A stretch of DNA of 43,776 bases from Eledone cirrhosa. Its lineage: Eukaryota. The DNA lies in assembly GCA_964016885.1 (NCBI GenBank), contig CAXHJY010001459.1:1-43776 (forward strand), given 5' to 3'. Below, in pieces: positions 1 through 43,776 of this stretch. Each line of letters starts with the position of its first letter. The stretch's first letter is position 1. Made by a program: the position numbers and the translations under genes. Under the pieces are notes generated by a model that saw only the letters and a program-made list of their open reading frames with translations, was not told where the DNA came from and did no database searches.

Positions 1-89
1 TATATATATATACATATATATATATACATATACATATATATATATACATATATATATATACATATATATATATACATATATATATATAC

Positions 90-136
<47 letters not shown>

Positions 137-163
137 CATATATACATATATATATATACATAT
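1..163. repeat. (TA)n microsatellite with TACA interruptions (runs off window start)
   Basis: Direct reading of the sequence. Confidence 0.98.
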
Positions 164-570
164 AAAAATACGTATTTAAGAAAGCCACAACAATGCAAAG
201 GGAAATCTCGAGGTAGGAAGTGAAATATAGATAGGAAAAACAGGTGAAAGTGAAAATTGAGAGAGACAAAGATGAAAACAAAACAAAGGTAGAAGGGTTA
301 CCGTAGTAGAGATTTAATCCCAATATTTCGGGCTCACGCCCATCAACGGGGGAAAAGTTCCAAAAGGGGGGAAACAGACCAAGCGGAGAAAGTTGTGATG
401 TCGTTAAGACAGGAATGCCGTTATGGGGAGAAAAATATTTAAAATTTAAACGAGGGAAAGAATGCGCGTGCGCGTGATAGGCTGTGGCAAAAGCTACTGA
501 CCAAATGGGTTAAATCAAGAGGGTGCGTTAGCGTGTGAAAGCCGTAAGATATGTGTATGTAAATATATAT

Positions 571-905
571 GTGTGTGTAACTGTGTGTGTATAAGTGTAA
601 GTGTGTATGTGTGAGTGTGTGTGTGTGTGAAAGATAGTGGGCTGTAGAAGTTGGAAATCAAAGGGTGTGAAAGGTGGTAGGTTGTAAAATATGTGTGCGT
701 GTATAAATATAGATGTGTGTGTGTAAGCGTATGGGTATACATGTGTGTGTAACTGTGTGTGTATATGTGTGAGTGCGTTTGTGTGTGAAAGATAGTGGGC
801 TGTATAGAAGCTGGAAATCAAAGGGTGTGAAAGGTGGTAGGTTGTAAAAACATGTGTGCGTGTATAAATATAGATGTGTGTGTGTATGCGTATGGGTATG
901 CATAT
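571..905. repeat. Tandem duplication (~175 bp x2) of TG-rich sequence in the PLE1 3' UTR
   Basis: aaagatagtgggctgt...ggaaatcaaagggtgtgaaaggtggtaggttgtaaaa...gcgtatgggtat occurs twice. Confidence 0.85.
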
Positions 906-957: not shown

Positions 958-1665
958 TTAAGTTAGCCATGTCAGCTCATTTCTCTCAGCCTGGTTGTTA
1001 AGTGGGGGTCTGAGGTTCTTAATAACAAGTGCTTCCTTTATCCTTAAGGATCCGATGCTGCGTTCAGTCGCTAGGACTGTGACCAAGGGTCTACCCTGTG
1101 GGTTTCCGCATTTAAGGATATGTTTACGGAAGGAAGATGCGTTGGTGTTGATATGTTCCTTGATACGAACATGTAGGGGTCGGATGGTGCTACCTATGTA
1201 AAACTTGTTACATTTATCGCATTGAATCTTATATACGACATAGGTGTGTAGGCAATCTGCCCCCTGTATCGGGCAGTTGCTGAGGGAACACGTCCCATCT
1301 GCCTCGTAGGGTTTGTTGGAGAGGCATCTTCGCAGCGAAGGTCCTGTGTGGGCCAAATGTATGTCAAGTCCCTCCGTCCGTATGGCCCTGCGGATGGCGT
1401 TCGTGGTATATTCACTCAGGTGGGGGATTTTAAAGAAGCACCTGCTAATATTAAGTTTTCTAGTGGGTGTCAGTCTACTGGGTCTGGGGTCTCTAATTCC
1501 GTTAATCAGTCGCTTGGGATAACCATTAGATCTGAGTAGATTACGGAATTGCGTGGTATGGGTGAGACCACCCATCGGGTCGCTGCATCTGTTAGTGATC
1601 CGTGTCAGTTCATTTAGGACATAGCCTCTCTTAGCGTTGTTGGGGAGGGCTGAGTTATAATGCAC
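958..1665 (-). CDS. PLE ORF C-terminal part: RT thumb/linker plus GIY-YIG endonuclease (partial)
   Basis: Motifs HYNSALP, NGYP, CSLSNCP, VVYKIQCDKCNKFYIGST, R-x3-H (RIKEH), IKEAL, PPLN; frame is open upstream to the truncation at ~1717. Confidence 0.9.
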   Translation of the reverse strand: MHYNSALPNNAKRGYVLNELTRITNRCSDPMGGLTHTTQFRNLLRSNGYPKRLINGIRDPRPSRLTPTRKLNISRCFFKIPHLSEYTTNAIRRAIRTEGLDIHLAHTGPSLRRCLSNKPYEADGTCSLSNCPIQGADCLHTYVVYKIQCDKCNKFYIGSTIRPLHVRIKEHINTNASSFRKHILKCGNPQGRPLVTVLATERSIGSLRIKEALVIKNLRPPLNNQAERNELTWLT

Positions 1666-1731
1666 AAATAAGTCCTTGCATGCTGCTTTGCGGTAGAAGG
1701 TGGTGTTTATGTCTCCATAAACACCACCTTT

Positions 1732-1767
1732 TCCCCCGTTGATGGGCGTGAGCCCGAAATATTGGGA
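1732..1767 (+). ncRNA. Non-canonical minimal hammerhead-like motif in PLE1 pLTR (second copy at 318-353, minus strand)
   Basis: UUGAUG-GGC-GUGA-GCC-C-GAAA-UAUU closed by UCCC/GGGA; the core deviates from CUGANGA. Confidence 0.45.
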
Positions 1768-3970: not shown

Positions 3971-4252
3971 GTCGTGGAGGTGCCACCCCCACCGCAAGGT
4001 GGTCGTGGAGGTGCCACGGCAAAAAAGCACCCAGCCCACACTGTAAAGTGGACGTGTAGGCGCCACGAAAAAGCACCCAGCACTCACTGTAAATGAGGTT
4101 GGTGTTAGGAAGGGCATCCAGCTGTAGAAATCAAGCCAGATCAGTTCCTGTATGAGCAAGGCATGGTCAGCCGACCAGACACTGCCCACAACAGGACAAC
4201 CCGTCTAACCCATGCTAGCGTGGAAGAACGGACGTAAAACGGTGATGATGAT
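3971..4252 (+). mobile_element. RTE subfamily C 3' UTR only (severely 5'-truncated copy)
   Basis: 3989-4250 reads identical by eye to 34631-34892; ends cggacgtaaaacggt(gat)n running into (TA)n. Confidence 0.92.
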
Positions 4253-5741
<1,489 letters not shown>

Positions 5742-8700
5742 TAGCAGAAAAGTGGGCAGATAAGATAATAGACGTAAATAGAGTGAACGACAGAATAATT
5801 AAAATAAGACTTGTCCTCAATAGAACTACGGTGACAGTAATATCTGCGTACGCACCCCAATCCGGACTGCTCGGCACTATAAAAGACAGATTCTATGAGA
5901 CACTGATGCTCACTACCTCCCAAATAACCGACAGTGACTATATAATTATTGCAGGCGACCTAAATGGTCACGTTGGACAACATTGTGACGGCTACGACGA
6001 AATCTATGGAGGCTATGGGTTTGGTACTAGAAATGAGGAAGGCTCCAGAATCCTGGAATTCTGTGACGCAAATAACCTAACTATCTGTAACACTAACTTC
6101 AAAAAACGTGACAATCACCTGATCACCTATAGATCCAGGTAGATTATATCCTTACCAGAAGACGTGACAGAGTGTCTGTTGTAAACACTAAATCCCTCCC
6201 ACATGTAGAATGCACCTCCCAACATAGACTGATAATTAGCGACCTCATAGTCAAATATGGAAGCTAAAGGACCCCACAGCCAGAAATAAATTTCAAAGCA
6301 TATTACTTGATGCTTTCGACAGTAAGGAAGAGCATTTAGAGTCGGGCAATATAGAGGGACAGTGGGAATTTCTGAAAGCAAACCTGCTGATGGCGACAGA
6401 CGAAGTCTGTGGCTGGAGCAGGCCTGTTGGCAGGAGGAGAGTAACATGGTGGTGGAACAGTAAGGTGGAGGGGTCAATTAAGGCCAAAAAGCAGGCTTGG
6501 AAAGTATGGCAGGATGGGGGAAGTAGAGAAGACTATCAAGTGGCCAGGAGGGAAGCTAGGAGACAAGTGTACTTCGCAAGAAGGGAAGCAGAGGAAAGAA
6601 AGTTCAAGCATGTTCTACAACGCGAGGACCAAAAACGTGAGGTGTTCAGGATTGCTAGGCAATGTGTCAAGGAAAACCGTGATATTGTCGGGGAGAAGTG
6701 TGTACTTAATGATGACGGCGTACTTGCCATCACCGACGTTGATAAGAAGGTAGCTTGGAAGTGTCACTATGAAAGGCTACTAAATAAGGAGAATAAATGG
6801 GAGAAAGACAGTCTCCCCCACATCGACCCAATAGAGGGACCAGCAGTGTTAGTCGAGGGGAGTATAATAAGTAAGGCAATCAAGGATATGAAGACGGGTA
6901 AGGCGGCTGGGCCTTCGGAAATAGTTGCTGAGATGCTGAAGGCATCTGGCACGGTGAGACACACCATGGTCACCCGCATAGTTAACCAAGTCGTACAGAA
7001 TGGGGTTGTTCCGAAGGACTGGCATAGCAGCATCATCGTTAACTGTTATAAGGGTAAAGGAGATGCCCTAGATAGGAGTAACTATAGAGGCATTAAATTA
7101 ATCGACCAGGTCATGAAGGTCACGGAAAAAGTAATAGCGCAACTAATCAGAGAGAGAATTGACCTAGATGAAATGCAGTTCGGGTTTGTGTCAAGCAAAA
7201 GTACCACAGATGCTCTTTTCATTGTACGTCAACTACAGGAGAAGTACCTAGCTAAAGGTAAACCCCTCTACTTAGCTTTTGTCGACTTGGAGAAAGCCTT
7301 CGACAGAGTCCCTCGTTCCATTATCTGGTGGGCCCTTAGAAAACTAGGTGTCGATGAATGGCTTGTGAGAGCTATACAAGCCATGTATAAAGAAACAGTC
7401 AGCAAGTTTAGAATTAACAACGAATATAGTGAAGAGTTTAGCGTAAAAGTTGGCGTCCATCAGGGCTCTGTTCTCAGCCCCCTACTATTTATTATTGCCC
7501 TTCAGGCTATAACAGAGGAGTTCAAGACCGGCTGCCCATGGGAACTCCTATACGCAGACGACTTGACACTCATAGCTGAATCAATGGCCGAGCTAGAGAA
7601 GAAATTCCAAACATGGAAGCACGGCCTAGAATCAAAAGGCCTTAAAATTAACCTGGCTAAGACTAAAGTTCTAGTTTGTAGGAAAGAAAATAAGGCGCCG
7701 GTCCCTTCCGAGAAATGGCCATACTCAGTGTGTAGGAAAGGCGTAGGTAGAAACTCCATTTTATGTCCCAAATGCAAAGTATGGGTGCATAAAAGACGTA
7801 GTGGGATCACAGGTAAGCTAACTAAGAACATAGATTTTACATGTGGGCGGTGCTCTGGTGCAATAAGTAGCAGCAAGTGCCGACAAAATACTAGCTCTTA
7901 CAACTGCGCAGAGGGCTCTATAGAAATAGTTACCTGGGTGACAAAATCAGCAGTGGGGGAGGGTGCTCTGAAAGTACAGTAGCTAGAGTCAGAACTGGAT
8001 GGAAAAAGTTCAGAGAGCTTATACCACTATTAGCTGCTAAAGGGTTCTCCCTAAAAATGAAAGGCAGGTTGTATGATGCCTGCATACGAACAGCAATGTT
8101 GCATGGCAGTGAGACCTGGGCATTGTGTGCAGAGGATATACGCAGACTAGAGAGGAACGAAGCTTGCATGCTCCGCTGGATGTGTAATAGTAATATACAT
8201 GAACGGCAAAGCATAAACGAACTAAAGAAAAAATTAGAAATAAGAGGGATCAGATGTTGTTTACTCGAGAGAAGGCTATGGACACATGATGCGCATGAAA
8301 GTCGACAGCTGTATAACAAAGTGCAGGGCAATAAAGATAGACGGTAGCCACGGAATAGGCAGACCTAGAAAATCCTGGGACAAGCTGATAAACTCCGACC
8401 TCACACACTTACACCTCTCCAAGACAATGTCACTGGACCGAGACCTTTGGCGGTACTCAGTAATAGATAAGACCCGCATTACCTAAATACATAGTAAAAC
8501 CTACTACAGCCAGTAGGCATCTCTAACAAAATACACCCCCGTTCCACCACCCCCACCCCATCCACACCACCCCCTCCTATGTAAAGTTATGTTGGTGCCA
8601 CACCATCCAGGCCGAAACAAATGAGATCGTGTAGGTGTCACGACAAAAAAACAGACAGTCCACGCTGTAATGTGGCCGTGTAGGCAACACGGTAAAAACC

Positions 8701-8871
8701 TCCCAGACCCACACTGTAAATGTGGTTGGTGTTAGGAAGGGCATAGAAAACCTGTAGAAAACCTGCCAGACAGTCCTATGCGAGCAAGACAATCACTCTT
8801 GCCTCAAGTGGGAATACTCCCGTCCAAACCCATGCAAGCGTGGAACACGGACGTTAAACGTTGATAATGAT
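5742..8871 (+). mobile_element. RTE-clade LINE, subfamily A, 5'-truncated and disrupted
   Basis: APE endonuclease fragments ([17 protein letters not shown]), RT (FVDLEKAFD, GVHQGSVLSP, LYADD), [13 protein letters not shown], ~380-nt 3' UTR, gat tail; frameshifts and deletions near 6137, 6262, 7930, 8277. Confidence 0.95.
6390..7982 (+). pseudogene. RTE-A reverse transcriptase ORF fragment
   Basis: 530-aa ORF with all non-LTR RT motifs, followed by a degenerate PHD-like finger. Confidence 0.92.
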
Positions 8872-9641: not shown

Positions 9642-9754
9642 GCAAAAGTTTTATTTAAAATTGTTGGGTTACAACAAGTAAATATTTTATAACTGATATA
9701 AAGCACTCCACAAGTTTTTGGAGTAGATATACGATATTAAACAAATGGAAACTA

Positions 9755-11365
9755 AAATCTGACCTGGGAAAACTTAGCAAAAACATTCTAGACAGGGTAA
9801 TACAGCAAATTAAAAACTTACATAATTTACCTTACTTAAAGTTATGGAAGGGGACTGGTGAGGTTATTGAGTGGTTTAAAGAAATTAAATATAACTATAA
9901 TAATAAGTTTATTCAACTTGATATTGCTAACTACTATTCATCTATCACTCCTAATCTACTGAATAAGGCACTAAATTACGCATTTAAACATACAGACCTA
10001 ACTAGCAATGAAATGCACATTATATTATCGGCAAGGAAAACATTGATAGAATTTAATAACCAATTATGGACTAGGGCAGATAGAGATAATAATTTCGACA
10101 TAACTATGGGATCATCTGACTCAGCTCAGGTAACGGACCTTGTGGGCCTATTTATAATTAATTCGCTGCATAGAAAAATACCAGGTGTAACCGGAGGTTT
10201 ATATCGTGATGACATGCTTTTACTTATTGAAAATAATAACTGTGAACTAAATAGAAAAAGAAAACAAATTATACAATTTTTTAATTACCTTAATCTAAAA
10301 ATAGAAATAGAGAATAACCATAGAATAGTCAATTTCCTAGATGTAACACTAAATCTCAACACATGTCTTCACTATCCATTTCACAAACTAAATGAGAACT
10401 TGAATCATGTCAATTTTAACTCTAATCACCCCAGATCTGTTAAAAATACTATAGTGAACTCTGTTCAAGAACGAATCTCAAGAATTTCCTCTAATAAAAA
10501 TATTTTTGACGAAAAAGCGCAGTATTACAATGAAGCGTTAGCTAGAGCAGGATATAGTGATAAAATTAAGTACATCGATAATAATAAGCAAACTAACCAA
10601 AATAATAACAATTTTAATTACGGTAACAACATTAACAACTATAATAGAAAACATTACAATAATTCCAAAAGCCGAAAAAGAAATAGAACTAGAAATATAA
10701 TATGGTTTGCCCCCTCTTTTTCACTAAATATTAAAACCCATATTGCTAAACTATTCTTTAATGCTCTTGACAAATGCTTCCCTAGAACACATAAATATCA
10801 CTCAATTTTTAATAGACATACTATAAAATTAACTTACTCGTCCACCAAAAATTTAGCACAAAATATTAACAGAATTAATAATAGGAATTTAAAACATAAC
10901 CAAAATACCAATAATAACCCAAACAATATTCAATTAAATAACTGTAACTGTAGAAATAAATCTAACTGTCCGTTAAATAACAATTGCTTAGTTAAAAATA
11001 TAGTATACAATTGTAATGTTAAAACTAACTTAAATTCTTACAACTATGTTGGTTCCACCTCGACAGAATTTAAACTTCGCTTCAATAATCATAAGAATTC
11101 TTTCACAGATCCAAACAAAAAATCCTCAACTTCGCTATCAAGCCTACTCTGGCAACTTAAACGAGATAATGTTGAGTATTCGATGTTTTGGAATATTGTC
11201 GCAAGAGGGATTCCTTTTAATTCCTCATCTGAGACATGTGATCTCTGTGTGGAGGAGATATTCTTTATATTAAAATCCAAAAATTCCCTTAATTTAAGGA
11301 GCAATTTATTCAGTTGCTGCAGACATAGATTGAACTCAACGTTTAAATATAAATTTAAAATGTAG
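9755..11365 (+). CDS. PLE reverse transcriptase plus GIY-YIG endonuclease (N-terminally truncated, uninterrupted)
   Basis: Frame of ORF 10013-11365 is open back to 9755: QLDIANYYSSI, FDITMGS, GLYRDD, NFLDV, RNIIWF, CNCR-x4-CPL, IVY...YVGST, R-x3-H, CDLC, CRH. Confidence 0.92.
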   Translation, partial: KSDLGKLSKNILDRVIQQIKNLHNLPYLKLWKGTGEVIEWFKEIKYNYNNKFIQLDIANYYSSITPNLLNKALNYAFKHTDLTSNEMHIILSARKTLIEFNNQLWTRADRDNNFDITMGSSDSAQVTDLVGLFIINSLHRKIPGVTGGLYRDDMLLLIENNNCELNRKRKQIIQFFNYLNLKIEIENNHRIVNFLDVTLNLNTCLHYPFHKLNENLNHVNFNSNHPRSVKNTIVNSVQERISRISSNKNIFDEKAQYYNEALARAGYSDKIKYIDNNKQTNQNNNNFNYGNNINNYNRKHYNNSKSRKRNRTRNIIWFAPSFSLNIKTHIAKLFFNALDKCFPRTHKYHSIFNRHTIKLTYSSTKNLAQNINRINNRNLKHNQNTNNNPNNIQLNNCNCRNKSNCPLNNNCLVKNIVYNCNVKTNLNSYNYVGSTSTEFKLRFNNHKNSFTDPNKKSSTSLSSLLWQLKRDNVEYSMFWNIVARGIPFNSSSETCDLCVEEIFFILKSKNSLNLRSNLFSCCRHRLNSTFKYKFKM

Positions 11366-13200: not shown

Positions 13201-13300
13201 TATATATATATACATATATATATTGTCCCACCCTTGCAAGCAGGGAAAAGCGGACGTAAAATGATGATGATGATATATATATATATACATATATATACAT

Positions 13301-14157: not shown

Positions 14158-17100
14158 AGCTTATCAGCACAGCAACAAAACAGCATAGAAAAATATGAAG
14201 ACGTCGCATCTCAGAGTTGCAACACTTAATGTTGGCACTCTCAGAGGTAGATCTGCTGAAATAGCGGAGATGCTGGAGAGAAGGCAGGTGGATGTGTGCT
14301 GCGTGCAAGAGGTGAGATGGAGAGGTGCCTCTGCGAGACTAGTAGTAGGCAAGCGTCTTAGCTATAAGCTATTCTGGGTAGGTAAGGATGATGGGTTAGG
14401 GGGAGTAGGCATTTTCCTGGCTGAGAAATGGATCAATAAGACAATAGAGGTAGTTTGAGTTAGTAATCGAATAATTAAGCTTAGATTAGTTGTAGGTAGG
14501 AGACTACTGACAATCATCTCGGTCTATGCTCCCCAAGCAGGCCTAGGCAAAGATGAGAAAGACTGCTTTTATGAGCAACTTTTGCAAACAACCACAATGA
14601 CAGAGGACGGAGACATCGTTATGCTAGCAGGAGACTTCAATGGTCATGTTGGACAGCTCCAGGATGGTTACACTGGGGTACATGGTGGGCACGGTTACGG
14701 TTCAAGAAATGAAGAAGGAGTGAGACTTCTTGAATTTTGTGATGCAAGTACATTGACTATTTGCAACACAAACTTCCAGAAACCTGCCAATCACCTAATA
14801 ACCTACAAATCTGGTGAGCACATAAGCCAGATTGACTTCCTGCTAGTTAGGCAGCGGGACAGGCAGATAGTGTCTAATACCAAGGCATACCCTGGGGAAG
14901 AATGTACCCCACAGCATAGGTTAGTTGTTAGTGATATCTCAGTAAGCAAGAGATGGAATGAGACATATAGGAAGGTGTGGAGAAGAAAGGTCTGGAAGCT
15001 AAAAGACCTTTCACTAAAATACAAATTTAGGAAAGCCCTTCAAGATGTATATGACGAAAAAGAATACGATTTAGAGACGTATGACATAGATAATAACTGG
15101 AATTTCTTACGTGACAACTTGCTGCAGGCTACTGATGAAACCTGTGGCTGGAGCAGAGCTCCAACCAGACAGAGAGTGACCTGGTGGTGGAACAGCACAG
15201 TAGATAAGGCTATTAGAGACAAAAGACTAGCATGGAAGGCTTGGAAAAAGGGTGGGAGTAGGGAAGAATATACAGCCACTAAGAGAGAAGCTAGACGTCA
15301 GGTGTACTTAGCATGCAGGGAGGCAGAGAGTAGGAGGTTTGCCAATGTTCTGCGACGGGAAGATCAGAGGCATGTGGTGTTCCACATTGCAAGGCAGTGT
15401 GTCAATGCAAATCAGGATGTTGTTGGAGATAAATGTGTCCGGGATGATGCCGGTGTACTTAGTGTCACGAATGACCAGAAAAAGGAGGCCTGGAAATGTC
15501 ATTATGAGAGACTGATGAATGTGGAGAACGAATGGGAGAGAGAGAAATTACCCTTGGTAGATCCGACAGAGGGACCAGCTATTGAGATTGACGAATATAG
15601 GGTCCAAGAGGCAATTAGGGAAATGAAAAATGGTAAGGCTGCCGGACCATCGGGGATAGTTGCTGGGATGCTGAAGGCATCAGGGGACGTAGGCACTAAA
15701 CTGGTTGCACGCATCATCAATCAGACTATATATGGTGGTGTCATACCCAAAGACTGGTGCAGCAGTATTCTCATAAATTGCTACAAAGGTAAAGGGGATG
15801 CTTTGGAGAGGAGCAATTATAGGGGTATAAAACTGATAGATCAGGTTATGAAAGTGGCAGAAAGGATTTTAGCACAACTAATTAGAGAAAGGGTCAAACT
15901 AGATGAGATGCAGTTTGGTTTTGTGCCTGGGAAGAGTACAACAGATGCCCTCTTCTTGGTGAGACAAATGCAAGAGAGGTTCTTAGAGAAGAATAAGCCA
16001 CTATACTTAGCCTTTGTTGACCTAGAGAAGGCCTTTGATAGGGTACCCCGATCTGTCATCTGGTGGTCCCTAAGGAAGCTAGGTGTTGAGGAATGGCTTG
16101 TGAGGACAGTGCAAACTTTGTACAGAGGTACTCTCAGTAAAGTCAGGGTAGGAATGGAGTTTAGTGAGGAATTCCAGATACAAGTAGGAGTACATCAGGG
16201 TTCGGTCCTCAGCCCGCTCTTGTTCATTATAGTCCTCCAAGCCATAACAGAGGAGTTTAAGACTGGCTGTCCATGGGAACTTTTCTATGCTGACGATCTG
16301 GCTCTTATAGCAGAATCAGTAGAGGAGCTAGAGAATAAATTCCGGCTATGGAAACAGCAGTTGGAAGCAAGAGGACTGAGAGTAAATCTAGCTAAGACAA
16401 AAGTGTTGATGAGTAGAAAAGAGGACAAAACCCTGATTCCGTCAGGGAAATGGCCATGTTCGATATGCAGAAAAGGAACTGGCATAAATTCTATAAAATG
16501 CACACAATGCAGGTCCTGGGTACACAAGAGATGTAGCGGGATAGCAGGCAAACTAACAGGTAGGGAGAAATATGTATGCAGTATAGATGTACAGGGAAAT
16601 TAGACAGTAGAAGTCGCACTGATAGACACATTTTTCAAATGCGAGAGGGCGCTATAGAAGTGGTGGATAGCTTCCGGTACCTAGGAGATCAGATTAGCAT
16701 GGGAGGAGGGTGTTCCGAGGCCATAGTATCTAGAATAAGGACGGGTTGGAAGAAGTTTAGGGAGCTGCTTACTCTGTTTACGAAGAAGGGTTTCTCCCTG
16801 CGTACAAAAGGCCGGTTGTATGATGCCTGTGTGAGGAGCGCGATGCTGCATGGTAGTGAGACATGGGCAGCAACCGCAGAGGATATGCGACAGCTGGAGA
16901 GAAATGAGGCAAGCATGCTCCGTTGGATGTGCAGTGTAAATGTGCGTGAACGACCCAGCATAAATGTGTTGAGAGAGAAACTGTGTCTGAGAGGGATAGA
17001 ATGTAGTGTACGGGAGAGGAGACTGAGGTGGTATGGACATGTGATGTGCATGGAGGATGACCGATGGGTGAAGAAGTGCCAGGAAATGCCAGTTGAAGGA

Positions 17101-17282
17101 AGATGTGGTAGAGGTAGACCACGAAAAACATGGGCGGAGGTGGTGAGAACAGACCTCAGATCATTGAAGCTCACGGTGGAGATGACGAGGGACCGTGACG
17201 AGTGGAGAGATGCTGTGCTGAATAAGACCCGTCCCACCCTTGCAAGCATGGAAAAGCGGACGTAAAATGATGATGATGATGA
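14158..17282 (+). mobile_element. RTE-clade LINE, subfamily B, near-complete coding region
   Basis: Begins at the endonuclease N-terminus ([15 protein letters not shown]), full RT, ends [13 protein letters not shown] directly into (GAT)n. Confidence 0.96.
14195..17265 (+). pseudogene. RTE-B APE endonuclease-RT-PHD ORF (~1020 codons) with two lesions
   Basis: ORFs 14195-14458 and 14582-16603 share a frame and are separated by one TGA (14456-14458); 2-bp insertion near 16582 relative to the copy at ~20675. Confidence 0.93.
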
Positions 17283-18865: not shown

Positions 18866-19313
18866 CATCATCATCATCATCATCATCATCAACGTTTAAC
18901 GTCCGTGTTCCACGCTTGCATGGGTTTGGACGGGGGTAGTCCCACTTGAGGCAAGAGTGATTGTCTTGCTCGCATAGGACTGTCTGGCAGGTTTTCTACA
19001 GTTGGATGCCCTTCCTAACACCAACCACATTTACAGTGTGGGTCTGGGAGGTTTTTACCGTGTTGCCTACACGGCCACATTACAGCGTGGACTGTGTGTT
19101 TTTTTGTCGTGACACCTACACGATCTCATTTGTTTCGGCCTGGATGGCGCGGCACCAACATAACTTTACATAGGACGGGGTGGTGTGGATGGGTGGGGGT
19201 GGTGGCGGGACGGGGTGTATTTTGTTAGAGATGCCTACTGGCAAGGCGGGTCTTCTCTGTTACTGAGTACCGCCAAAGGTCTCGGTCCAGTGACATTGTC
19301 TTGGAGAGGTGTA
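18864..19313 (-). mobile_element. RTE subfamily A 3' end, 5'-truncated
   Basis: Reverse complement closely matches ~8409-8871; (CAT)n tail on the + strand. Confidence 0.92.
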
Positions 19314-19982: not shown

Positions 19983-20857
19983 TATCATCATCATTTTACT
20001 ACGCTCTTCCCTGCTTGCAAGGGTGGGACGGGTCTTATTCAGCACAGCATCTCTCCACTTGTCACGGTCCTTCGTCATCTCCACTGTGAGCTTCAGCGAT
20101 CTGAAGTCTGTTCTCACCACCTCCACCCATGTTTTTCGTGGTCTACCTCTACCACGTCTTCCTTCAACTGGCATTTCCTGGCACTTCTTTACCCATCGGT
20201 CATCCTTCATGCACATCACATATCCATCCCACCTCAGTCTCCTCTCCCGTACACTACATTCTATCCCTCTCAGACACAGTTTCTCTCTCAACACATTCAT
20301 GCTGGGTCGTTCACGCACATTCACACTGCACATCCAACGGAGCATGCTTGCCTCATTTCTCTCCAGCCATCGCATATCCTCTGCAGTTGCTGCCCATGTC
20401 TCACTTTCATGCAACATCGCGCTCCTCACACAGGCATCATATAACCGGCCTTTCGTATGCAGGGAGAAACCCTTCTTCGTCAGCAGAGGAAGCAGCTCCC
20501 TAAACTTCTTCCATCCCGTCCTTATTCTAGATACTATGGCCTCGGAACATCCCTCTCCCATGCTAATCTGATCTCCTAGGTACCGGAAGCTATCCACCAC
20601 TTCTATAGCACCCGCCTGCATTTGAAAAATGTGTCTATCAGTGCGACTTCTACTGTCTAATTTCCCTGTACATCTACTGCATACATATTTCTCCCTACCT
20701 GTTAGTTTGCCTGCTATCCCGCTACATCTCTTGTGTACCCAGGATCTGCATTGTGTGCATTTTATAGAATTTATGCCAGTTCCTTTTCTGCATATCGAAC
20801 ATGGCCATTCCCTGACGGAATCAGAGTTTTGTCCTCTTTTCTACTCCTCAACACTTT
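19983..20857 (-). mobile_element. RTE subfamily B, 5'-truncated
   Basis: ORF 19659-20621(-) N-terminal ~210 aa nearly matches ORF 16576-17265; same terminus. Confidence 0.94.
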
Positions 20858-20875
20858 TGTATATATATATACATC

Positions 20876-22330
20876 ACATAGCAGTGTGTCAGAGTGAATC
20901 AGGATATTGTTGCAGAAAAGTGTTTTCAAATTGACATAAGTACATTTAGCACCACTGATGCTCAAAAGAAAGAGTGCTATGAAAGGCTGATGAATGCGAA
21001 GAATGAGGGGAAGGATGAGAGACGACTCCCAACTGACCAAACAGAGGGAGCAGCTATCAAGATCAACAGTTATAGAGTCAACGAAGCAACGACGGAGACA
21101 TAAAATAGTAAAGTTGCTGGACTGTCAGAAATAGTTGGTGAGATGCTAAAGGCATCTGAGAAAGTAGGAGCAGTACTAGTCACCCACATAGTCAATTAGG
21201 TAATACAGGATTGGGTAATATCCAAAAGCTGGTGCAGCAGTATAACTCGATTGCTACAAAGGAGAGGGTGATGCTCTATAGAAAGGAGCAACTACAAGGT
21301 AAAAAAAACTAACAGACCAAGTTATAAACACAATGGGAAGAGTTCTAGCACAACTGATTAGGGAAAGAATCAAATTAGATGAGATGCAGTTTGTTTTTGT
21401 GCCATGGAGAAGTACTACAGAAGCTCTCTTCTTAGTGAGACAAATACAAGAGAAGTTGTTAGTTAAGAATAAGTCACTATATTTTGCTTTTGTTTATCTA
21501 GAGAAAGCCTTTGACAGAGTACCACAATCTGACCTCTGGTGGTCCTTAATGAAACTAGGTGTAGATGATTGGCTTGTGTGAGCAGTGTTAACCATGTATA
21601 GAGGAGCTGTTGATAAAGTGAGAGTTGGAAGTGAGTTTATTGAGGAATTCAGAGTACAGGTAGAAGGATGTGGAAACAGAACTTAGAATCAAAAGGGCTC
21701 TGAGTAAACTTGGCAAAAGCCAAAGTTTTAGTAAGAAGGAAAGGAGACAGGACCTTTATTTCATCAGTGAAGAGAGCTTGCTTGATATTTAGAAAAGGAG
21801 TAAACAAAAACTCTATATGATGTACACAGTGTAACTCTTGGGTACACAAGAGGTGTAGTAGGATAACAGGCAGACTAACAGAAATGGTAGACTTTGTTGT
21901 AGGTGTACAGGGATAGTTGGTAGTAAGAGCATAAGTGAAATAAATCTTTTCCTATTCCAGGAAGGATCCATAGAAATGGTTGATAGCTTCTGCTACCTAG
22001 GTGATCTAATTAACAATGGGGGAGATGCTCTGAAAGCATAGTAGCTAGATTAAGAACATGATGGAAAAAGTTCTGCGAACTACTACCTCTGTTGACAAGA
22101 GGCTTTTCTCTACAAACAAAAAAACAGCTGTGTAACACCTGTGTGATGTGCGATGCTGCATGGAAGTGAGATATGTGCAGTGTAGAGGAAGACCTGTGTG
22201 GAGGTGGTGAGAGCTGATCTCAAATCAATGAAGCTCTCAGAAGAGATGATGAAGGGATGAAAAAGACCCATCGAACCCATACAAGCATGGAAAAGCAGAT
22301 GTAAAATGATGATCATGATAGTAATGATGA
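20876..22330 (+). mobile_element. Old degenerate RTE (subfamily D, B-like terminus)
   Basis: LDEMQF, FAFVYLEKAFDRVP fragments with many stops and deletions; ends cccatacaagcatggaaaagcagatgtaaaatgatgat. Confidence 0.88.
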
Positions 22331-24233: not shown

Positions 24234-25295
24234 GATGTAGTGGGATCACAGGTAAACTAACCAAGAATATAGATTTTATATGTGGCCGGTGCTCTGGTGC
24301 AATAAGTAGTAGCAAGTGCCCACAGGATACTAGCTCCTTCCATTGCCCAGATGGTTCTATAGAAATAGTAGACACCTTCCGTTACCTGGGTGACAAAATC
24401 AGCAGTGGTGGAGGGTGCTCTGAAAGTACTGTAGCTAGAGTCAGAACTGGTTGGAAAAAGTTCAGAGAGCATATACCACTATTGGCCGCTAAAGGTTTCT
24501 CCCTAAGAATGAAAGGCAGACTGTATGATGCCTGCATACGAACAGCAATGTTACATGGCAGTGAGACCTGGGCATTGTGTGCAGAGGACCTGCATAGACT
24601 GGAGAGGAACGAAGCTTGCATGCTCCGCTGGATATGTAATAGTAATATACGTGAACGGCAAAGCATAAATGAACTAAGTGAGAAATTAGGAATAAGAGGG
24701 ATCAGATGCTGTTTACTCGAGAGAAGACTACATTGGTATAGTTACGTGATGCTCATGAAAGACGACAACTGTATAAACGGTAGCCACGGAGTAGGCAGAC
24801 CCAGAAAAACCTGGGACGATTTGATAAATTCCGACCTCACACACACCTCTCCAAGACAATGTCACTGGTCCGAGATCTTTGGTGCTATGCAGTAATACAG
24901 AAGACTCTCCTTGCCTAAGTACAAAGCGAAACCTACAGACAGTAAGCACCTCCTAACCAAAAGTACACCCTCACCCCACTACCCTTACCCCACACCCCCA
25001 TCTACACCTAAAGTTATGTGGGTGCCACAACATCCAGTCCTAAATAAATGAGGTCGTGTAGGTGTCACGACAAAAAAAAACACACAGTCCATGCTGTAAT
25101 GTGGCCGTGTAGGTAACACGGTAAAAACCTCTCAGTCCACATTGTAAACGTGGTTGGTGTTAGTAAGGGCATCCAGCCGTAGAAAACCCGCCAGACAGTC
25201 CTATATGAGCAAGACAACCAATCTTGCCTCACGTGGGACAATTCCCATCTAAACCTATGCTAGCATGGAAGATAGACGTTAAACGACAATGATGA

Positions 25296-25527: not shown

Positions 25528-25706
25528 TGTGTTAGTGCCATGATAAAAAACACCTGGTAGCACTGTAAAATGCTAGTGCTGGTACCACAATAAAAAGGAC
25601 CCAGTCCACACTGTAAAGCGGTAGTGCTGGTGCCATAAAACTAGTTAGCACTGTAAAGTGATATTACTGGTACCACGAAAAAAAAAAAAACACTCAGTCC
25701 ACTGTG
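25528..25706 (+). repeat. Degenerate tandem array (~4 x 40-48 bp) of the unit found in RTE-A/C 3' UTRs
   Basis: Repeating gtgctggtgcca...aaaaa...cccagt...cactgtaaa. Confidence 0.75.
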
Positions 25707-26423
25707 TGATAATGATATTCCTGATACATGAATTCTGTAAAGTCCCCTCTGATCTTCATTTAACAGCAAGTTAAGCTAAGCTTAAAAAAATAAAAATACA
25801 TAACTGCCAGAATATGAAAGAATTAAAGCAAGTGAGAGGTGTGAACCATTGAAACCAACTGTTGCTTTTTGGTCACTTGAGCTGTTCAACATAGCAGTCT
25901 GCTCCCACCCAAACACACACTACCATCTTTAAAAATATGTATTTTGGCTAATACAAATCTAGATTATATTTGGTAAAAATTATATGATAATTGTAAATGA
26001 AGTATTTTTGCTCATAGACCTGCTCAAACAGGTTTGTCCTAGGGCTAAACAACAGCAACTATAGAGTTTCAATGTGGTCAATTGAATACTTCAATATATA
26101 ACTGGTGTCTGTTTTATTAATTCCCAATATGCGAAGAGAAAAAACAGTTGACGCTTGTGGTGTTTAGCAATAGAAATGTCTATATACCTTTGATTTACAA
26201 TTCAAATGAATAGTTATATGAGTAAAAAATGAAAATCACCAACTAGTTTAGGTTTTTTGGGGAGAGAAGGATGAGGAAAATCATGTTCTTCATTTACATG
26301 AATTCAATTGAAGAAAATTATCAACAACAAATGAATAAGGGTATCAGAGATGAAAGAAAATCAATAGCAATAAGGAAGAAGAATAATCAATGAATATTAC
26401 TATGAGAATAATCAATGTATATG

Positions 26424-26815
26424 AGGCACATGGCTTAGTGGTTAGAGCATTGGCCTTGCAATCGAAAGGTTGTGAGTTCAATTCTCAGACCGGGTGATGT
26501 GTTGTTTCCTTGAGCAAAACACTTTATTTCACATTGCTCCAGTTTACTCAGCTGTAGAAATGAGATGATAGGGACTGGAGTCCCTATCATTCCACTGCAA
26601 AGTAGTTGTGGAGGTGCCACGGCAAAAAAGGACCCAGCCCACACTGTAAAGTGAACGTGTAGGTGCCATGGAAAAAAAGCACCCAGCACTCACTGTAAAT
26701 GAGGTTGGTGTTAGAAAGGGCATCCAGCTGTAGAAATCAAGCCAGAATCAGTTCCCATCCCACCCTTGCAAGCAGGGAAAAGCGGACATAAAATGATGAT
26801 AATGATGATGATGAT
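26424..26815 (+). mobile_element. Chimeric tRNA-derived SINE with RTE-C 3' module and RTE-B terminus
   Basis: A box tggcttagtgg, B box gagttcaattc, CORE-like ccttgagcaaaacacttt; 26592-26756 matches the RTE-C UTR; 26758-26815 matches the RTE-B end. Confidence 0.85.
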
Positions 26816-27984: not shown

Positions 27985-29480
27985 TTACATATGGCAGCAG
28001 CAATAACTGCCAGTGTCATTCCTCTGTCAACTATCATCCAGTCAGTCTTACTAGCTGCATTGCTAAACTGATGGAATCCTGTGTCAGAGAAACACTTTGG
28101 AACTTTTGGAACTTCTGGAACCCTCAGTCTTATCCAGCCCTCGCAATTTGGATGTATCCCTAACTCCATCTGCTGTGATCAACTTATCGAGTTTCTTGAA
28201 GACATCACCCGGATCACTGATGGTGGCTCATGGGTAGATGTTGTTTACTTTGACTTTGCTAAAGCTTTCAATTCTGTGCCACCCAAAAGACTTATGGCAA
28301 AACTCTCTGCAATGGGTGTGAAGGATGATCTTTTTAACTGGTTGAAGTCGTTCATTCTCAGTCGAAGAGAGGTAGTCACGGTTCTAGGACAGCATTCCTC
28401 ACCATATGAGATGTCATCTGGTGTACCACAGGGATCTGTTCTTGGCCCCCTTTTGTTTGTGGCATATATTAATGACATAGATGCCAATTTAAAGAATGCC
28501 AGAGTACAGAAATAGGCAGATGACATCAAGCTGTACCTTGAGATAAAAAGGACAGATCCTGAACACTATAGATTTTTCCTGCAATCTGACCTGGACACAA
28601 TGCAGCAATGGATCATGGACTGGTTACTCAAGTTGGCTGTGGACAAGTGTACCACCATGCATTTTGGGAGTAAAAACTCAGCGTCCACATACTCCCTCCA
28701 CAATGCTAATATCAAGAAGTCTTCTTATGAACGTGACCTGGGCATTACTGTCAGCAGCGATTTGCGTTGGACAAAGCACGTCTCTAAAATTGTCAAGAAG
28801 GCCGAGGGTGTCTTAGCATCACTCAGCAACACCTTTGTCAGCCGCTCTCCAGCTATCTATTTAAAGCTGTATATAGCTATGGTGCGGCCACACTTAGAAT
28901 TTGCATCACCAGTCTGGAACCCCTATCTTGTTCAGAACATTGATCGCCTGGAAACTGTTCAGAGACGGACAACCAAGTGAATACCCTCCATCAGGCATCT
29001 ACCATACACTGAGCGCCTTGCTTCCCTGGGCATGGATACATTGAAGCTCCAATGTCTGTCAACTGACTTGGTAAACACCCACAAAATTATTAACCATCTT
29101 GCCAACAAGAACCCTGAACACTTTTTTGATTTCCATGTCTAACACATGTGGGCATGCCAACAAAGTCAGAAAACAGCACAGCTCCCATGACTTTCGGAAA
29201 CATTTTTTCATGCTCAGAGTTGCTGAAGCATGGAACAAACTACCTGCATCAGTTATTAGCTGTCGAGACACTGCATCCTTTAAAACTTCCATGCTTCCTG
29301 AGATTCGCCAACACTATACCTGATATCCCCCCTCTATACACACACACACACATGTATTTCATGACTGGTACACTGTTCATTTTCCTGACATTTGTACATT
29401 ATTCTATGTACTATACATGCACCTTTGATGAGTTGTAGTGCACCTAAGCACTGTACACAATAATTTCATTACTATTATAA
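27985..29480 (+). mobile_element. CR1/L2-group LINE, 5'-truncated and degenerate
   Basis: NYHPVSLTS, DVVYFDFAKAFNSV, SGVPQGSVLGPLLF, (Y>*)ADD, ERDLG, VRPHLEFASPVWNP, WNKLP; short (TTA)-like tail. Confidence 0.92.
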
Positions 29481-33705: not shown

Positions 33706-34906
33706 AAGCAGGGACTAGAGAGAAAGGGCCTCAAAGTCAACATGACAAAGACTAAGGTCCTTATAAGTAGACGAGAAAACAGAACCCAGATCCCCTCAGG
33801 GAAATGGCCTTGCTCAGTATGTAGGAAAGGTGTAGGTAGGAACTCCATTCTTTGCCCCAAATGCAAACAATGGGTACACAAGAGATGTAGCGGGATCTCA
33901 GGAAGCTTAATTAAGAATGTAGGATTCACATGCAGCAGCTGTGCTGAAACAGCAAGCAAACAGCCACAGGAAACAAGTACCACCAATCTCTGGGAGGGCC
34001 CTGTAGAAACAGTAGACAGCTTCTGCTACCTAGGTGACCGAATTAGCAACGGAGGTGGGTGCTCAGAAAGTACAATAACTAGGGTAAGAACGGGATGGAA
34101 GAAGTTTAGGGAACTACTACCACTGCTAGCTGCAAAAGGCTTCTCCCTCAGAATGAAAGGCAGACTGTATGATGCGTGTATCCGAACAGCGATGTTGCAT
34201 GGTAGTGAGACCTGGGCGCTGAAGGTGGAAGACTTACGTAGATTAGAGAGAAACGAAGCCTGCATGCTCCGATGGATGTGTAACAGTAATATACGTGAAC
34301 GACAAAGCATAAATGAATTGAGAGAGAGACTGAGCATAAGAGGAATCAAATGCTGCGTGCAGGAGAGGCGGTTACGCTGGTATGGACATGTGATGCGTAT
34401 GAAGGATGACAGCTGCATAAAAAGGTGCAGAGCACTAGAAGTTGATGGAAACCGCGGAGTGGGGAGACCCAAGATGACTTGGGATGAGGTGATAAAAGCC
34501 GACCTTACCCAACTACACCTCTCAAAGTCAATGACACACGACCGTGACTTCTGGCGTCACGCAGTAATACAGGGTACCCGACCTCCCATGGGTACATGCT
34601 GAAGCATATAAACAATATGCCCCCCCCCCCCCACCGCAAGGTGGTCGTGGAGGTGCCACGGCAAAAAAGCACCCAGCCCACACTGTAAAGTGGACGTGTA
34701 GGCGCCACGAAAAAGCACCCAGCACTCACTGTAAATGAGGTTGGTGTTAGGAAGGGCATCCAGCTGTAGAAATCAAGCCAGATCAGTTCCTGTATGAGCA
34801 AGGCATGGTCAGCCGACCAGACACTGCCCACAACAGGACAACCCGTCTAACCCATGCTAGCGTGGAAGAACGGACGTAAAACGGTGATGATGATGATGAT
34901 GATGAT
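33706..34906 (+). mobile_element. RTE subfamily C, 5'-truncated, young (uninterrupted ORF 33742-34602)
   Basis: Intact PHD finger, [22 protein letters not shown]; ~300-nt 3' UTR; (GAT)n tail. Confidence 0.95.
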
Positions 34907-35539: not shown

Positions 35540-36567
35540 ATTGCTTCATCTTTGCAGATGATTGCCATCTCCCTATGTACCCCCATCAACCATCATCAAC
35601 TCCAAACGTCCGCTCATGGTCTTTTAGGTGGCTTTTCAGTGCAACTTTAGATCTGCACGGTTTGCAGCAAATGTGACAGACAAAAGATGTACCCTCTTGG
35701 ATTGATTGGGTCAGTTTATGGGATGTCATCCTTATGTGTCCTCATATGCCTTTTAAGACCAGAGATTGATTTGCAGATCTTGTATACCACACATGTCTCA
35801 CCTAGTATTTGGAGGGACAGAGCTGCATACGGTTGGCTTTTATGTGATTTTAAATGAGTGATGTACCCAGATTTAGAGAGAATTAGAGAACCACACACTA
35901 CACATCACCATCTCCCTATGTTCTTATTGAGGTTCATACTGTGGCCTTTTCGAAGCTGACTTTTAAGTTTTTCATGGTCAAGATGTCTCTCTTCAAACAT
36001 TCTGCAGCCTTCTTTCACATGTCATCTCCATTCAACCTTCTTTAAAGCAAGCACTTCCCAGTTCTGAACTTCAAACTGTAGATCCTTAAAGTTGTTTTTT
36101 ATACAATCTTTATATCTTTTTCTTGATTTGTGCAGGTGTTTCCCAGTGTGCAATTGACTGTAAAATAGTTGTTTTGGTAGTCTTTCCTCATTCATGCGCA
36201 CAACATGGCCTACCCAACGTATTTAAGAAGACATGATGTTAGATTCAATGCTTGTGCAACCCGCATCTATAAAGATTTGTACGTCGGGTATTTTTTGTTG
36301 CCATTTGAAGTTTAGGATTCATCTTAAGCACTTTTGATTAAAGTGTTCAAGCAAATTAAGGTGTCTACAATGTACTGCCCATGTTTCCGAGAGTACAACA
36401 GATCACTCAGAATGCAGGCCTTGTACACACTAATCTTGGTCTGGATATTGATGGCATGATTCGCCCACACTCTCTTTTGAAGTGTTCCGAACGCTACAGA
36501 GGCCTTCTGTATGCTCAGGTGTATTGTTACATCCAGTGAACCATCACTCAACAATGCACTGCTCATT
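35540..36567 (-). mobile_element. Degenerate RTE of a different (BovB-like) lineage with C-terminal C2H2 zinc fingers
   Basis: IQKASVAFGTLQKRVW, TKISVYKACILSDLLY, WVGHV, RLPKQLFYSQL, then three finger-like motifs (SKSGYITHLKSH, CKSISGLKRHMRTH, CHICCKPCRSKVALKSHLKDH). Confidence 0.8.
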
Positions 36568-40164: not shown

Positions 40165-40795
40165 AACCTATTCCAGTCACAAGAAGGACCCATACAAGTG
40201 GTTGATAGCTTCTGCTATCTAGGTGGTGCAATTAGCAATGGAGGAGGGGAGGGCGCTCTGAGAGCATAATAGCTAGAATAAGGATAGAATGGAAGAAGTT
40301 TAGAGAGCTACTCCCAACAAAAGGTTTCTCCCTACATATATGAGGCCTGTGTGAGAAGTGTGATGTTGCATAGTAGTGAAACATGGGCTGTGGCTGCAGA
40401 AGACATGCATAGACTGAAGAGAAATGAAGCAGCCATACTTCGTTGTATGTGTAATGTAAAGATGAGAGAAAGGCAGGATTTAGATGAACTGAGAGAGAAA
40501 CTGGGTTTAAGAGGAATCCAAGGTGGTGTGCAGGAGAGAAGACTGTGTTTGGTATGGACATATGACTCACATGGATGATGACCAATCAGTGAAGAAGTGC
40601 TAGGAAATGTCATTGGAAGGAAGTCACAGTAGAGGTAGACCAAGAAAGACCTGGGCAGAAGTGGTGAGAACTGACCCAAAATTCTTGAGACTCACAGAGG
40701 AGATGCCAAAGAAACACAGCGAGTGGAGTGATGCTGAGAAGGATCCGTCCAACCCATGCAAGCATGGAAAAATGGATGTAAAAATGATGATGATA
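40165..40795 (+). mobile_element. Degenerate RTE with B/D-type terminus, 5'-truncated
   Basis: [31 protein letters not shown]; ends ccgtccaacccatgcaagcatggaaaa...atgatgat. Confidence 0.88.
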
Positions 40796-41816: not shown

Positions 41817-43776
41817 TCATCATCATCATTTAACGTCCATCTTCCATGCTTGCATGGGTTTGGACGGGAGTTTTCCCACTTGAGGCAAGAGTGGTTGTCT
41901 TGCTCGCATAGGACTGTCTGGCGGGTTTTCTACGGCTGGATGCCCTTCCTAACACCAACCACATTTACAGTGTGGAACTGGGAGGTTTTTACCGTGTTAC
42001 CTACACGACCACATTACAGCGTGGACTGTGTGTTTTTTGTCGTGACACCTACACGACCTCATTTGTTTCGCGCTGGATGTTGTGGCACCGACATAACTTT
42101 ACATTGAAAGGGGTGGTGTGGATGGGGTGGGGGTAGTGGGACGGGGGTGTATTTTTGTTAGAGGTGCCTACTGACTGTAGTAGGTTTCACTTTGTACTTA
42201 GGTAAGGCGGGTCTTCTGTATTACTGTGTAGCGCCAAAGATCTCGGTCCAGTGACATTGTCTTGGAGAGGTGTAAGTGTGTGAGGTTGGAATTTATCAAG
42301 TCGTCCCAGGTTTTTCTGGGTCTGCCTACTCCGTGGCTACCGTCTATTTTTATTGCCCTGCACTTTTTTATACAGCTGTCGTCTTTCATGCACATCACGT
42401 GACCGTACCAACATAGTCTTCTTTCGAGTAAACAACATCTGATCCCTCTTATTTCTAATTTTTCCCTTAGTTCATTTATGCTTTGCCGTTCACGTATATT
42501 ACTATTACACATCCAGCGGAGCATGCAAGCTTCGTTCCTCTCCAGTCTGCGTATATCCTCTGCACACAATGCCCAGGTCTCACTGCCATGTAACATTGCT
42601 GTCCGTATGCAGGCATCATACAGCCTGCCTTTCATTTTTAGAGAGAACCCTTTAGCGGCTAATAGTGGTATAAGCTCTCTGAACTTTTTCCATCCAGTTC
42701 TGACTCTAGCTACTGTACTTTCAGAGCACCCTCCACCACTGCTGATTTTGTCACCCAAGTAACGGAACTATTTCTATAGAACCATCTGTGCAATGGAATG
42801 AGCTAGTATTCTGTGGGCACTTGCTGCTACTTATTGCACCAGAGCACCGGCCACATATAAAATCTATATTCTTAGTTAGCTTACCTGTGCTCCCACTACA
42901 TCTTTTATGCACCCATACTTTGCATTTGGGACATAAAATGGAGTTTCTGCCTACTCCTTTCCTACACACTGAGCATGGCCATTTCCCAGATGGGACCGGT
43001 GCCCTATTTTCCTTCCTACAAACTAGAACTTTAGTCTTAGACAGGTTAATTTTGAGGCCTTTTGATTCTAGGCCATGCTTCCATGTTTGGAATTTCTTCT
43101 CTAGTTCAGCCATTGATTCAGCTATGAGCATTAGATCATCTGCGTATAGGAGTTCCCATGGGCAGCCGGTCTTGAACTCCTCTGTTATAGCCTGAAGGGC
43201 AATAATAAATAGTAGGGGGCTAAGAACGGAGCCCTGATGAACACCAACTTTTACGCTAAACTCTTCACTATATTCGTTGTTAATTCTAACCTTGCTGACT
43301 GTTTCTTTATACATGGCTTGTATAGCTCTCACAAGCCATTCATCAACTCCTAGTTTTCTAAGAGCCCACCAGATAATGGAATGGGGGACTCTGTCAAAGG
43401 CTTTCTCCAAGTCGACAAAAGCTAAGTATAGGGGTTTACTTTTAGCTAGGTACTTCTCCTGTAGTTGTCGTACAATGAAAAGAGCGTCTGTGGTACTTTT
43501 ACCTGACACAAACCCGAACTGCATTTCATCTAGATCAATTCGCTCTCTGATTAGTTGCGCTATTACTTTTTCTGTGACCTTCATGACCTGGTCGATTAAT
43601 TTAATGCCTCTATAGTTACCCCTATCTAGGGCATCTCCTTTACCCTTGTAGCAGTTAATAGTGATGCTGCTACGCCAGTCCTTCGGAACAACCCCATTCT
43701 GTATGACTTGGTTTACTATCCGGGTGACCATAGTGTGTCCCACCGTTCCAGAAGCTTTCAGCATTTCAGCAACTAT
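41817..43776 (-). mobile_element. RTE subfamily A (continues beyond window end)
   Basis: ORFs 42751-43764 (RT plus intact PHD) and 42198-42758 are nearly identical to RTE-A at 5742-8871; same 3' UTR and tail. Confidence 0.95.

Follow-up and report, generated by a model that had tools for sequence, protein, structure and literature searches.

A 3' untranslated region common to two RTE-like LINE families of Eledone cirrhosa and its probable derivation from RTE sequence

Introduction

The stretch of Eledone cirrhosa DNA analysed here (the window, 43,776 nt) carries TA microsatellites and many LINE fragments throughout, and among these are copies of four LINE families, A to D, which we take from their anatomy to be RTE elements. 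All four families have a microsatellite tail at the 3' end. B and D have a very short 3' untranslated region (UTR) or none, in contrast to A and C, in which a long UTR lies between the end of the open reading frame (ORF) and the terminal hairpin. The locus raises the question of where this additional sequence came from and whether the two families acquired it together or separately. The original prediction was that the LINEs had taken up a SINE-type 3' module, A in its own diverged version, with an old terminus left to decay in C.

Results

Self-BLAST of the window recovered four 3' ends of family A, two copies of family C, two B copies without a UTR together with a lone B-type terminus, two D-type copies without a UTR, and two ORF-less copies of the module (Table 1). 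Pfam matched RVT_1 and endonuclease domains in B1 and in L001, an element fetched through protein similarity, and RVT_1 in A1; tblastn with the L001 ORF reached all four families, in the 5'-truncated C1 through the C-terminal part alone. Trees were built on the C-terminal region of unnamed homologues. The sole cephalopod-named protein match was from Octopus bimaculoides (56% identity, 67% of the query covered). The window also holds an old, weak RTE C-terminal remnant (36025-36429, minus strand, 20% identity), a Penelope-like ORF with a GIY-YIG Pfam match (958-1767, minus strand), an open frame of 568 aa that is Penelope-like by eye and has no Pfam match (9659-11365, plus strand), and reverse transcriptase (RT) fragments that by eye resemble CR1/L2 and belong to a different LINE clade (28072-28980, plus strand). 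On the whole window Rfam returned just sub-threshold, microsatellite-driven miRNA matches and a weak tRNA, and ARAGORN found no tRNA gene.

Table 1. Coordinates of RTE copies, module copies and parts of the C1 3' end in the window
Feature	Position	Strand	Remarks
Headless C-type module and terminus	3972-4252	+	99.6% to C1 over 266 nt; TA microsatellite
RTE-A1	5743-8871	+	UTR 8477-8818; terminus from 8819
Lone B-type terminus	13226-13270	+	45 nt, inside TA microsatellite
RTE-B1	14189-17280	+	UTR-less; hairpin within last codons; without 5' leader
RTE-A3	18870-19309	-	3' end only; self-BLAST
RTE-B2	19984-20860	-	Without UTR
D-like RTE	21665-22330	+	UTR-less; decayed, with internal deletions
RTE-C2	22970-23700	+	Older; ORF end, UTR and terminus unbroken; 80% to C1
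RTE-A4	24234-25295	+	Self-BLAST
Four decayed tandem units	25529-25707	+	Without core or terminus
SINE-like element	26424-26815	+	C-type module 26592-26753; B-type terminus
RTE-C1, 3' part of ORF	33712-34602	+	PHD finger and C-terminal domain; 5'-truncated; stop 34600-34602
C1 anchor at K-T-R position and weak terminus look-alike	34576-34612	+	Possible old terminus; not above chance
C1 C-run	34620-34632	+	13 C
C1 tandem units (two, ~45 nt)	34644-34735	+	34644-34689 and 34694-34735
C1 module core	34725-34787	+	Homologous to RTE 5'-leader motif; exact 18-nt pattern 34747-34764
C1 spacer	34788-34840	+	First ~15 nt in common with A, remainder family-specific
C1 terminal hairpin and TGA-repeat tail	34841-34906	+	Terminus 34841-34881; tail to 34906
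RTE-D1	40186-40794	+	Without UTR
RTE-A2	41817-43776	-	Self-BLAST

The layout foreseen for C1, a terminus look-alike followed by the C-run, the module, a second terminus and a TGA tail, was found in that order. The UTR-less end of B1 was likewise borne out base by base, its ORF closing within the terminus over 17224-17265 (13 protein letters), and in A1 342 nt separate positions 8476 and 8819. C2 aligned without a break to C1 34400-34900 at 80%, from ORF through UTR to tail, and three further A copies have the A version, so that the UTR is a family trait and not a lone chimera. Contigs with no letter difference to C1 over 33995-34625 were present in two sequencing runs; C1 is near a young subfamily sequence, and family C is young. 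The stretch was seen across 17 organisms, and this spread was not taken as horizontal transfer: two sequencing runs from that set, X4 and X5, had just 10 and 17 contigs of low depth, in part identical to C1, a pattern that looks like trace DNA.

By analogy with SINE/LINE work (PMC3747384), the terminal hairpin and tail are likely the recognition site of the reverse transcriptase. The hairpin has six predicted pairs, one of them with a two-sided change among 11 sequences, and its folding energy was not beyond that of shuffles. The module as a whole had been described as structured, which the folding comparison did not uphold: 34631-34760 gave z = -1.63, with 11 of 200 shuffles folding as well, and 34730-34845 gave z = -0.19. 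The headless copy at 3972-4252 is likely a truncated C copy that has lost its 5' part and in which 15 nt are duplicated at the junction. It opens at 3972-3986 with a 15-nt duplicate of the start of unit 1, ahead of the C-run. Both ORF-less module copies start at or beside the C-run position, and these two copies suggest a stall or switch point there.

Sequencing run X1 was used to view the C family beyond the window. Summed contig depth, which is a rough guide and gives no copy number, was 1.2-1.3 million at the ORF end, 1.5 million in the C-specific spacer and 2-5 million in the module; read in this rough way, most C-type tails are joined to ORFs and the module is also used by other families. 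No joint skipping the UTR was present among 15 of 250 joints listed, a sample that leaves room for rare UTR-less C variants. In the same run 481 contigs depart from the core at 34772 and continue into different sequence (median 101 nt); additional families would therefore share that core.

The anchor that had been taken to mark a decayed old terminus in C consists of coding codons, K-T-R in A, B and C2 and G-T-R in C1, and the anchor alone is thus no evidence of an old terminus. A terminus profile drawn from 10 UTR-less or bipartite termini was placed at the anchor and compared with 500 shuffles of each sequence. Real termini scored 32-38 in this test and were equalled by 0 of 500 shuffles. 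The look-alike behind the anchor scored -1.7 in C1, equalled by 56 of 500 shuffles, and -0.9 in C2, equalled by 38 of 500, while in the four A copies 121-218 of 500 shuffles scored as high. Past the K-T-R codons the predicted decayed terminus is accordingly not above chance. A first pairwise test had given 53 of 2000 shuffles for C1 (~0.025), with the anchors of C2, A3 and A4 placed 2-3 nt off. An old-terminus remnant in C1 is possible on its sequence.

Two tandem units are present in each A or C copy, and the number varies between families; among the joints called in sequencing-run contigs, some skip a unit and some repeat one. Searched against 212 kb of loci, the units matched nothing beyond the window (best E 1.3), and the part of the UTR that could be traced amounts to ~45 nt out of 250-340. 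A fifth LINE family ahead of the decayed units at 25529 was considered and dropped (tblastn best E 0.33). By eye the tandem unit is loosely like part of the Deu segment of BivaMD-SINE1, among the MetaSINE and Deu/Nin SINEs of PMC4824008. A 19-nt Deu motif, the one short motif searched, had 0 matches at up to 3 mismatches. Identity with the Meta domain was rejected, the 66-nt domain that follows the tRNA head in MetaSINEs not being seen by eye against the alignments available in the PMC4824008 supplement.

The UTRs of the two families align with each other over the tandem units, the core and the terminus, and what had been regarded as A's own version is one homologous structure with that of C. 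A and C are 74-80% identical over the final ~380 bases of coding sequence and 75-83% identical over the module; for C1 and C2 the values are 82% at the ORF end and 86% in the module. In the trees A and C form a clade with support of 100/98, weakly adjoined by P0004 and P0005 (91/81; 83/59), both of which stop short of the hairpin peptide. B1, P0014 and P0123 are the sister group of the A+C side, within a clade at 100/99, and close with an RPTHAS-like peptide, the translation of the hairpin. The same ending occurs in the outgroup proteins P0009 (Hydractinia), P0007, P0124, P0129, P0057, P0077, P0131, P0015 and P0020, and the outgroup RTE DNA of L001 and L019 has the hairpin at the ORF end with the UTR absent. 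Of 224 homologous proteins in which the C-terminal helix is recognisable, 52 fit strict hairpin-peptide patterns, 42 of them in one frame and 10 in a second; 172 fit neither pattern, and protein sequence alone does not allow their ends to be classed. Since UTR-less ends are found in B, D, the sister proteins and several outgroup lineages, parsimony makes the extended UTR derived and the UTR-less state ancestral. A single gain in the A+C ancestor, and not two captures, fits the collinearity of the two UTRs and their divergence, which is about that of their ORFs.

The one tRNA-headed carrier of the module in the window is the SINE-like element at 26424-26815. Its tRNA-like head (26431-26488) scored 28.1 bits against the Rfam tRNA model (gathering threshold 29; E 0.0008 in a 451-nt search), and ARAGORN found no tRNA gene in the element. 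The body is presumably CORE-like. A 12-bp inverted repeat without mismatch lies between body and module, its loop 2 nt long (26565-26590); it recurs with one change in an X4 contig. The module begins just past the C-run position, agrees with C at all 13 columns that tell A from C, groups with C1 (90/87) and is without the spacer common to A and C. This nesting inside family C makes the element, as far as its sequence tells, a likely borrower of the module and not its donor. Its terminus is 90% identical to B1 and 71% to C1; at 26753-26794 a C-type module is joined to a B-type terminus, and the element thus draws on two LINE families. The head-side junction recurs in one X4 contig, which differs at 1 of 30 nt, apparently lacks one unit and has a depth of 38 compared with 8 for the ORF contig; as far as the head side goes, this suggests that the element forms a family. 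An X4 contig that shares the extra A (at 34781) runs on into a C-type tail, and the tail may be variable within the SINE family.

The module core, of ~45 nt, is a fragment of an RTE 5' leader. L001 is an RTE of 1087 aa, intact and equipped with endonuclease, RT and PHD domains. The 18-nt pattern of the module stands in the 5' leader of L001, at 618-635, and again in an inverted neighbour; the alignment of core to leader spans the ~45 nt. The motif was found in 1 of 17 protein-fetched loci, most of which are short or without a 5' end, and by arithmetic the chance of the 18-nt pattern over these loci (~40 kb) is about 5e-6. A scan of a genome contig collection with a 21-nt pattern gave 33 stretches, many of them in animal-like contigs within bacterial bins, and the loci of these stretches, L001 and one viral match make up 32 distinct motif contexts. 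In four of the 32 the motif lies just 5' of an RTE ORF start (L001, L019 twice, L044). Four more are short elements without an ORF in which the same hairpin follows within ~65 nt (L031 twice, L039, L041). Some of the remaining contexts have other short tails, L038 has a tRNA-like head by eye, and 10 of the 32 look like chance bacterial sequence; in none does the motif lie inside the 3' UTR of an RTE. The contig matches were chosen by the motif itself, so that a profile built from them is partly circular. A viral contig collection gave 0 matches to a 29-nt pattern, none to the protein and one chance-like match to the 21-nt pattern. Two RTE 5' leaders stand back to back in L001, facing outward (1-280, minus strand; 470-650, plus strand), and L019 and L044 are RTE pairs arranged head to tail on animal-like contigs inside bacterial genome bins.

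From core to hairpin is ~55-75 nt, and the terminus is 76-81% identical to those of B1, D1 and L001. The appended part thus has the body-plus-tail anatomy of a SINE yet is ultimately LINE-derived, and with a LINE-derived core any step from SINE to LINE would be a return trip. No donor older than the A/C split was found in a search short of a whole genome. The idea that LINEs gained a SINE-type 3' module is supported as regards the derived UTR and its body-plus-tail anatomy, and is not supported as regards separate captures by A and C, a decayed old terminus and a SINE as donor. Two observations had been named in advance as counting against it, an ancestral UTR and SINEs nested within the LINE lineages; the UTR appears not to be ancestral, and the sole tRNA-headed carrier does nest within a LINE lineage, C.

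Discussion

We favour, at a probability of roughly 0.55, a history in which a short bipartite RTE derivative fused once behind a UTR-less LINE in the ancestor of A and C, giving the shared UTR. This derivative would have had no head or would have come from a SINE, as its body plus tail. By one route, the RT would prime on the hairpin of the short RNA, copy it and switch to the 3' end of the full LINE mRNA; by another, the short element would insert just 3' of a LINE and be fixed by read-through. The new hairpin would then serve target-primed reverse transcription, releasing the last codons of the ORF, while the old one probably decayed or disappeared. At a later stage the C1 lineage probably passed the module, beginning at the C-run, to a tRNA-headed SINE; such a transfer would go from LINE to SINE, as is usual.

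A head-to-tail pair of LINEs could also have supplied both parts without any short element, read-through or deletion joining the first ORF to the 5' leader of the second and then to a terminus, in one or two steps. Such neighbours do occur: L019 has an RTE whose end is 541 nt ahead of the motif in the leader of the following RTE, L044 is similar, and B2 and A3 of the window are tandem neighbours. We nevertheless consider this origin, the chief rival, unlikely, as the second event must remove ~3 kb exactly between leader and terminus, whereas elements with core and hairpin ready-made exist (the two of L031, L039 and L041) and the literature calls bipartite RTE derivatives common (PMC7245038; PMC5786205).

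Separate capture of a tRNA SINE body and tail by A and by C, each old terminus then decaying, strikes us as quite improbable. The two UTRs are collinear and have diverged like the ORFs, the SINE module is nested in C and has no A/C-shared spacer, and the remnant is non-significant with correct anchors. In favour of such captures are the tRNA-headed SINE with the module, the recurrence of its head-side junction in X4 (depth 38 versus 8 for the ORF contig), and the two CATG words that C1 has at hairpin spacing, with ~0.025 in the first test. Least probable is an extended UTR that was ancestral locally and was lost in B and D by deletion between two ACCCG words: in C1 ACCCG does stand where the hairpin starts and again at the K-T-R position, and P0004 and P0005 end before the hairpin peptide and group weakly with A+C, but distant outgroups share an in-frame K/N-R-P-T-H-A-S ending with the hairpin directly at the ORF end, and the loss must recreate the ancestral frame exactly, so that this account is largely refuted.

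The single fusion that we prefer may be extended into a full circle, in which a LINE 5' leader became a SINE body, this became the 3' UTR of an autonomous LINE, and from there it passed to a new SINE, the sequence being kept by selection. We regard this extension as doubtful. The RNA advantage would lie in ribonucleoprotein assembly, translation or stability, and the module, being as conserved between A and C as the coding sequence, fits selection. If true, a LINE would have domesticated the body of its own parasite. The origin and function of conserved SINE bodies are described as an open question (PMC4824008 and PMC5786205).

Bipartite RTE derivatives and SINEs join a piece of RTE 5' UTR to an RTE 3' end, with an optional tRNA head, and their tails are exchanged between families, for which template switching or recombination has been proposed (Kojima 2018, PMC5786205; Kojima 2020, PMC7245038). 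The A/C module has the same core-plus-terminus architecture; in those accounts, however, the bipartite unit ends up in SINEs, whereas here it is the 3' UTR of ORF-bearing LINE families. A 12-nt core motif had 0 matches in the available PMC5786205 supplement, and the leader segment thus differs from those aligned there. B and D are like RTE-2_OV of Octopus vulgaris, an RTE-clade LINE with APE, RT and PHD/zinc finger domains, in their single ORF and microsatellite tail, and the microsatellite of RTE-2_OV starts at the ORF end (PMC9115989). A and C differ from RTE-2_OV, which is known by description, in the 250-340 nt of unique UTR before the hairpin. BovB lineages reportedly, after Walsh and colleagues in 2013, have SINE fragments at their ends. 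Ingi-3_AC apparently took up SINE-associated sequence in its 5' UTR (PMC5786205), and both are likewise LINEs with SINE-associated sequence; compared with Ingi-3_AC, the A/C piece replaces the functional 3' terminus and was retained through a family split.

The literature searched gave no account of autonomous RTEs whose 3' UTR is a bipartite module, Repbase, Dfam and most subscription papers lying outside that search, and the structure is not described in the accessible portions of PMC4758252, PMC3747384, PMC13295347, PMC10294476, PMC6036668 and PMC13282606. These ends may already be present in consensus libraries. The A/C UTR is an instance of known bipartite-RTE shuffling, and the uptake of SINE pieces by LINEs has precedent.

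To most biologists this will be ordinary transposon shuffling. It also shows that the whole 3' end of a LINE can be exchanged, and it calls for caution with headless 'SINE-like' copies of the module in such genomes, which may be truncated LINE tails. With A and C carrying the module beside B and D without it, in one genome and with C young, these families offer a natural pair for testing the role of the module.
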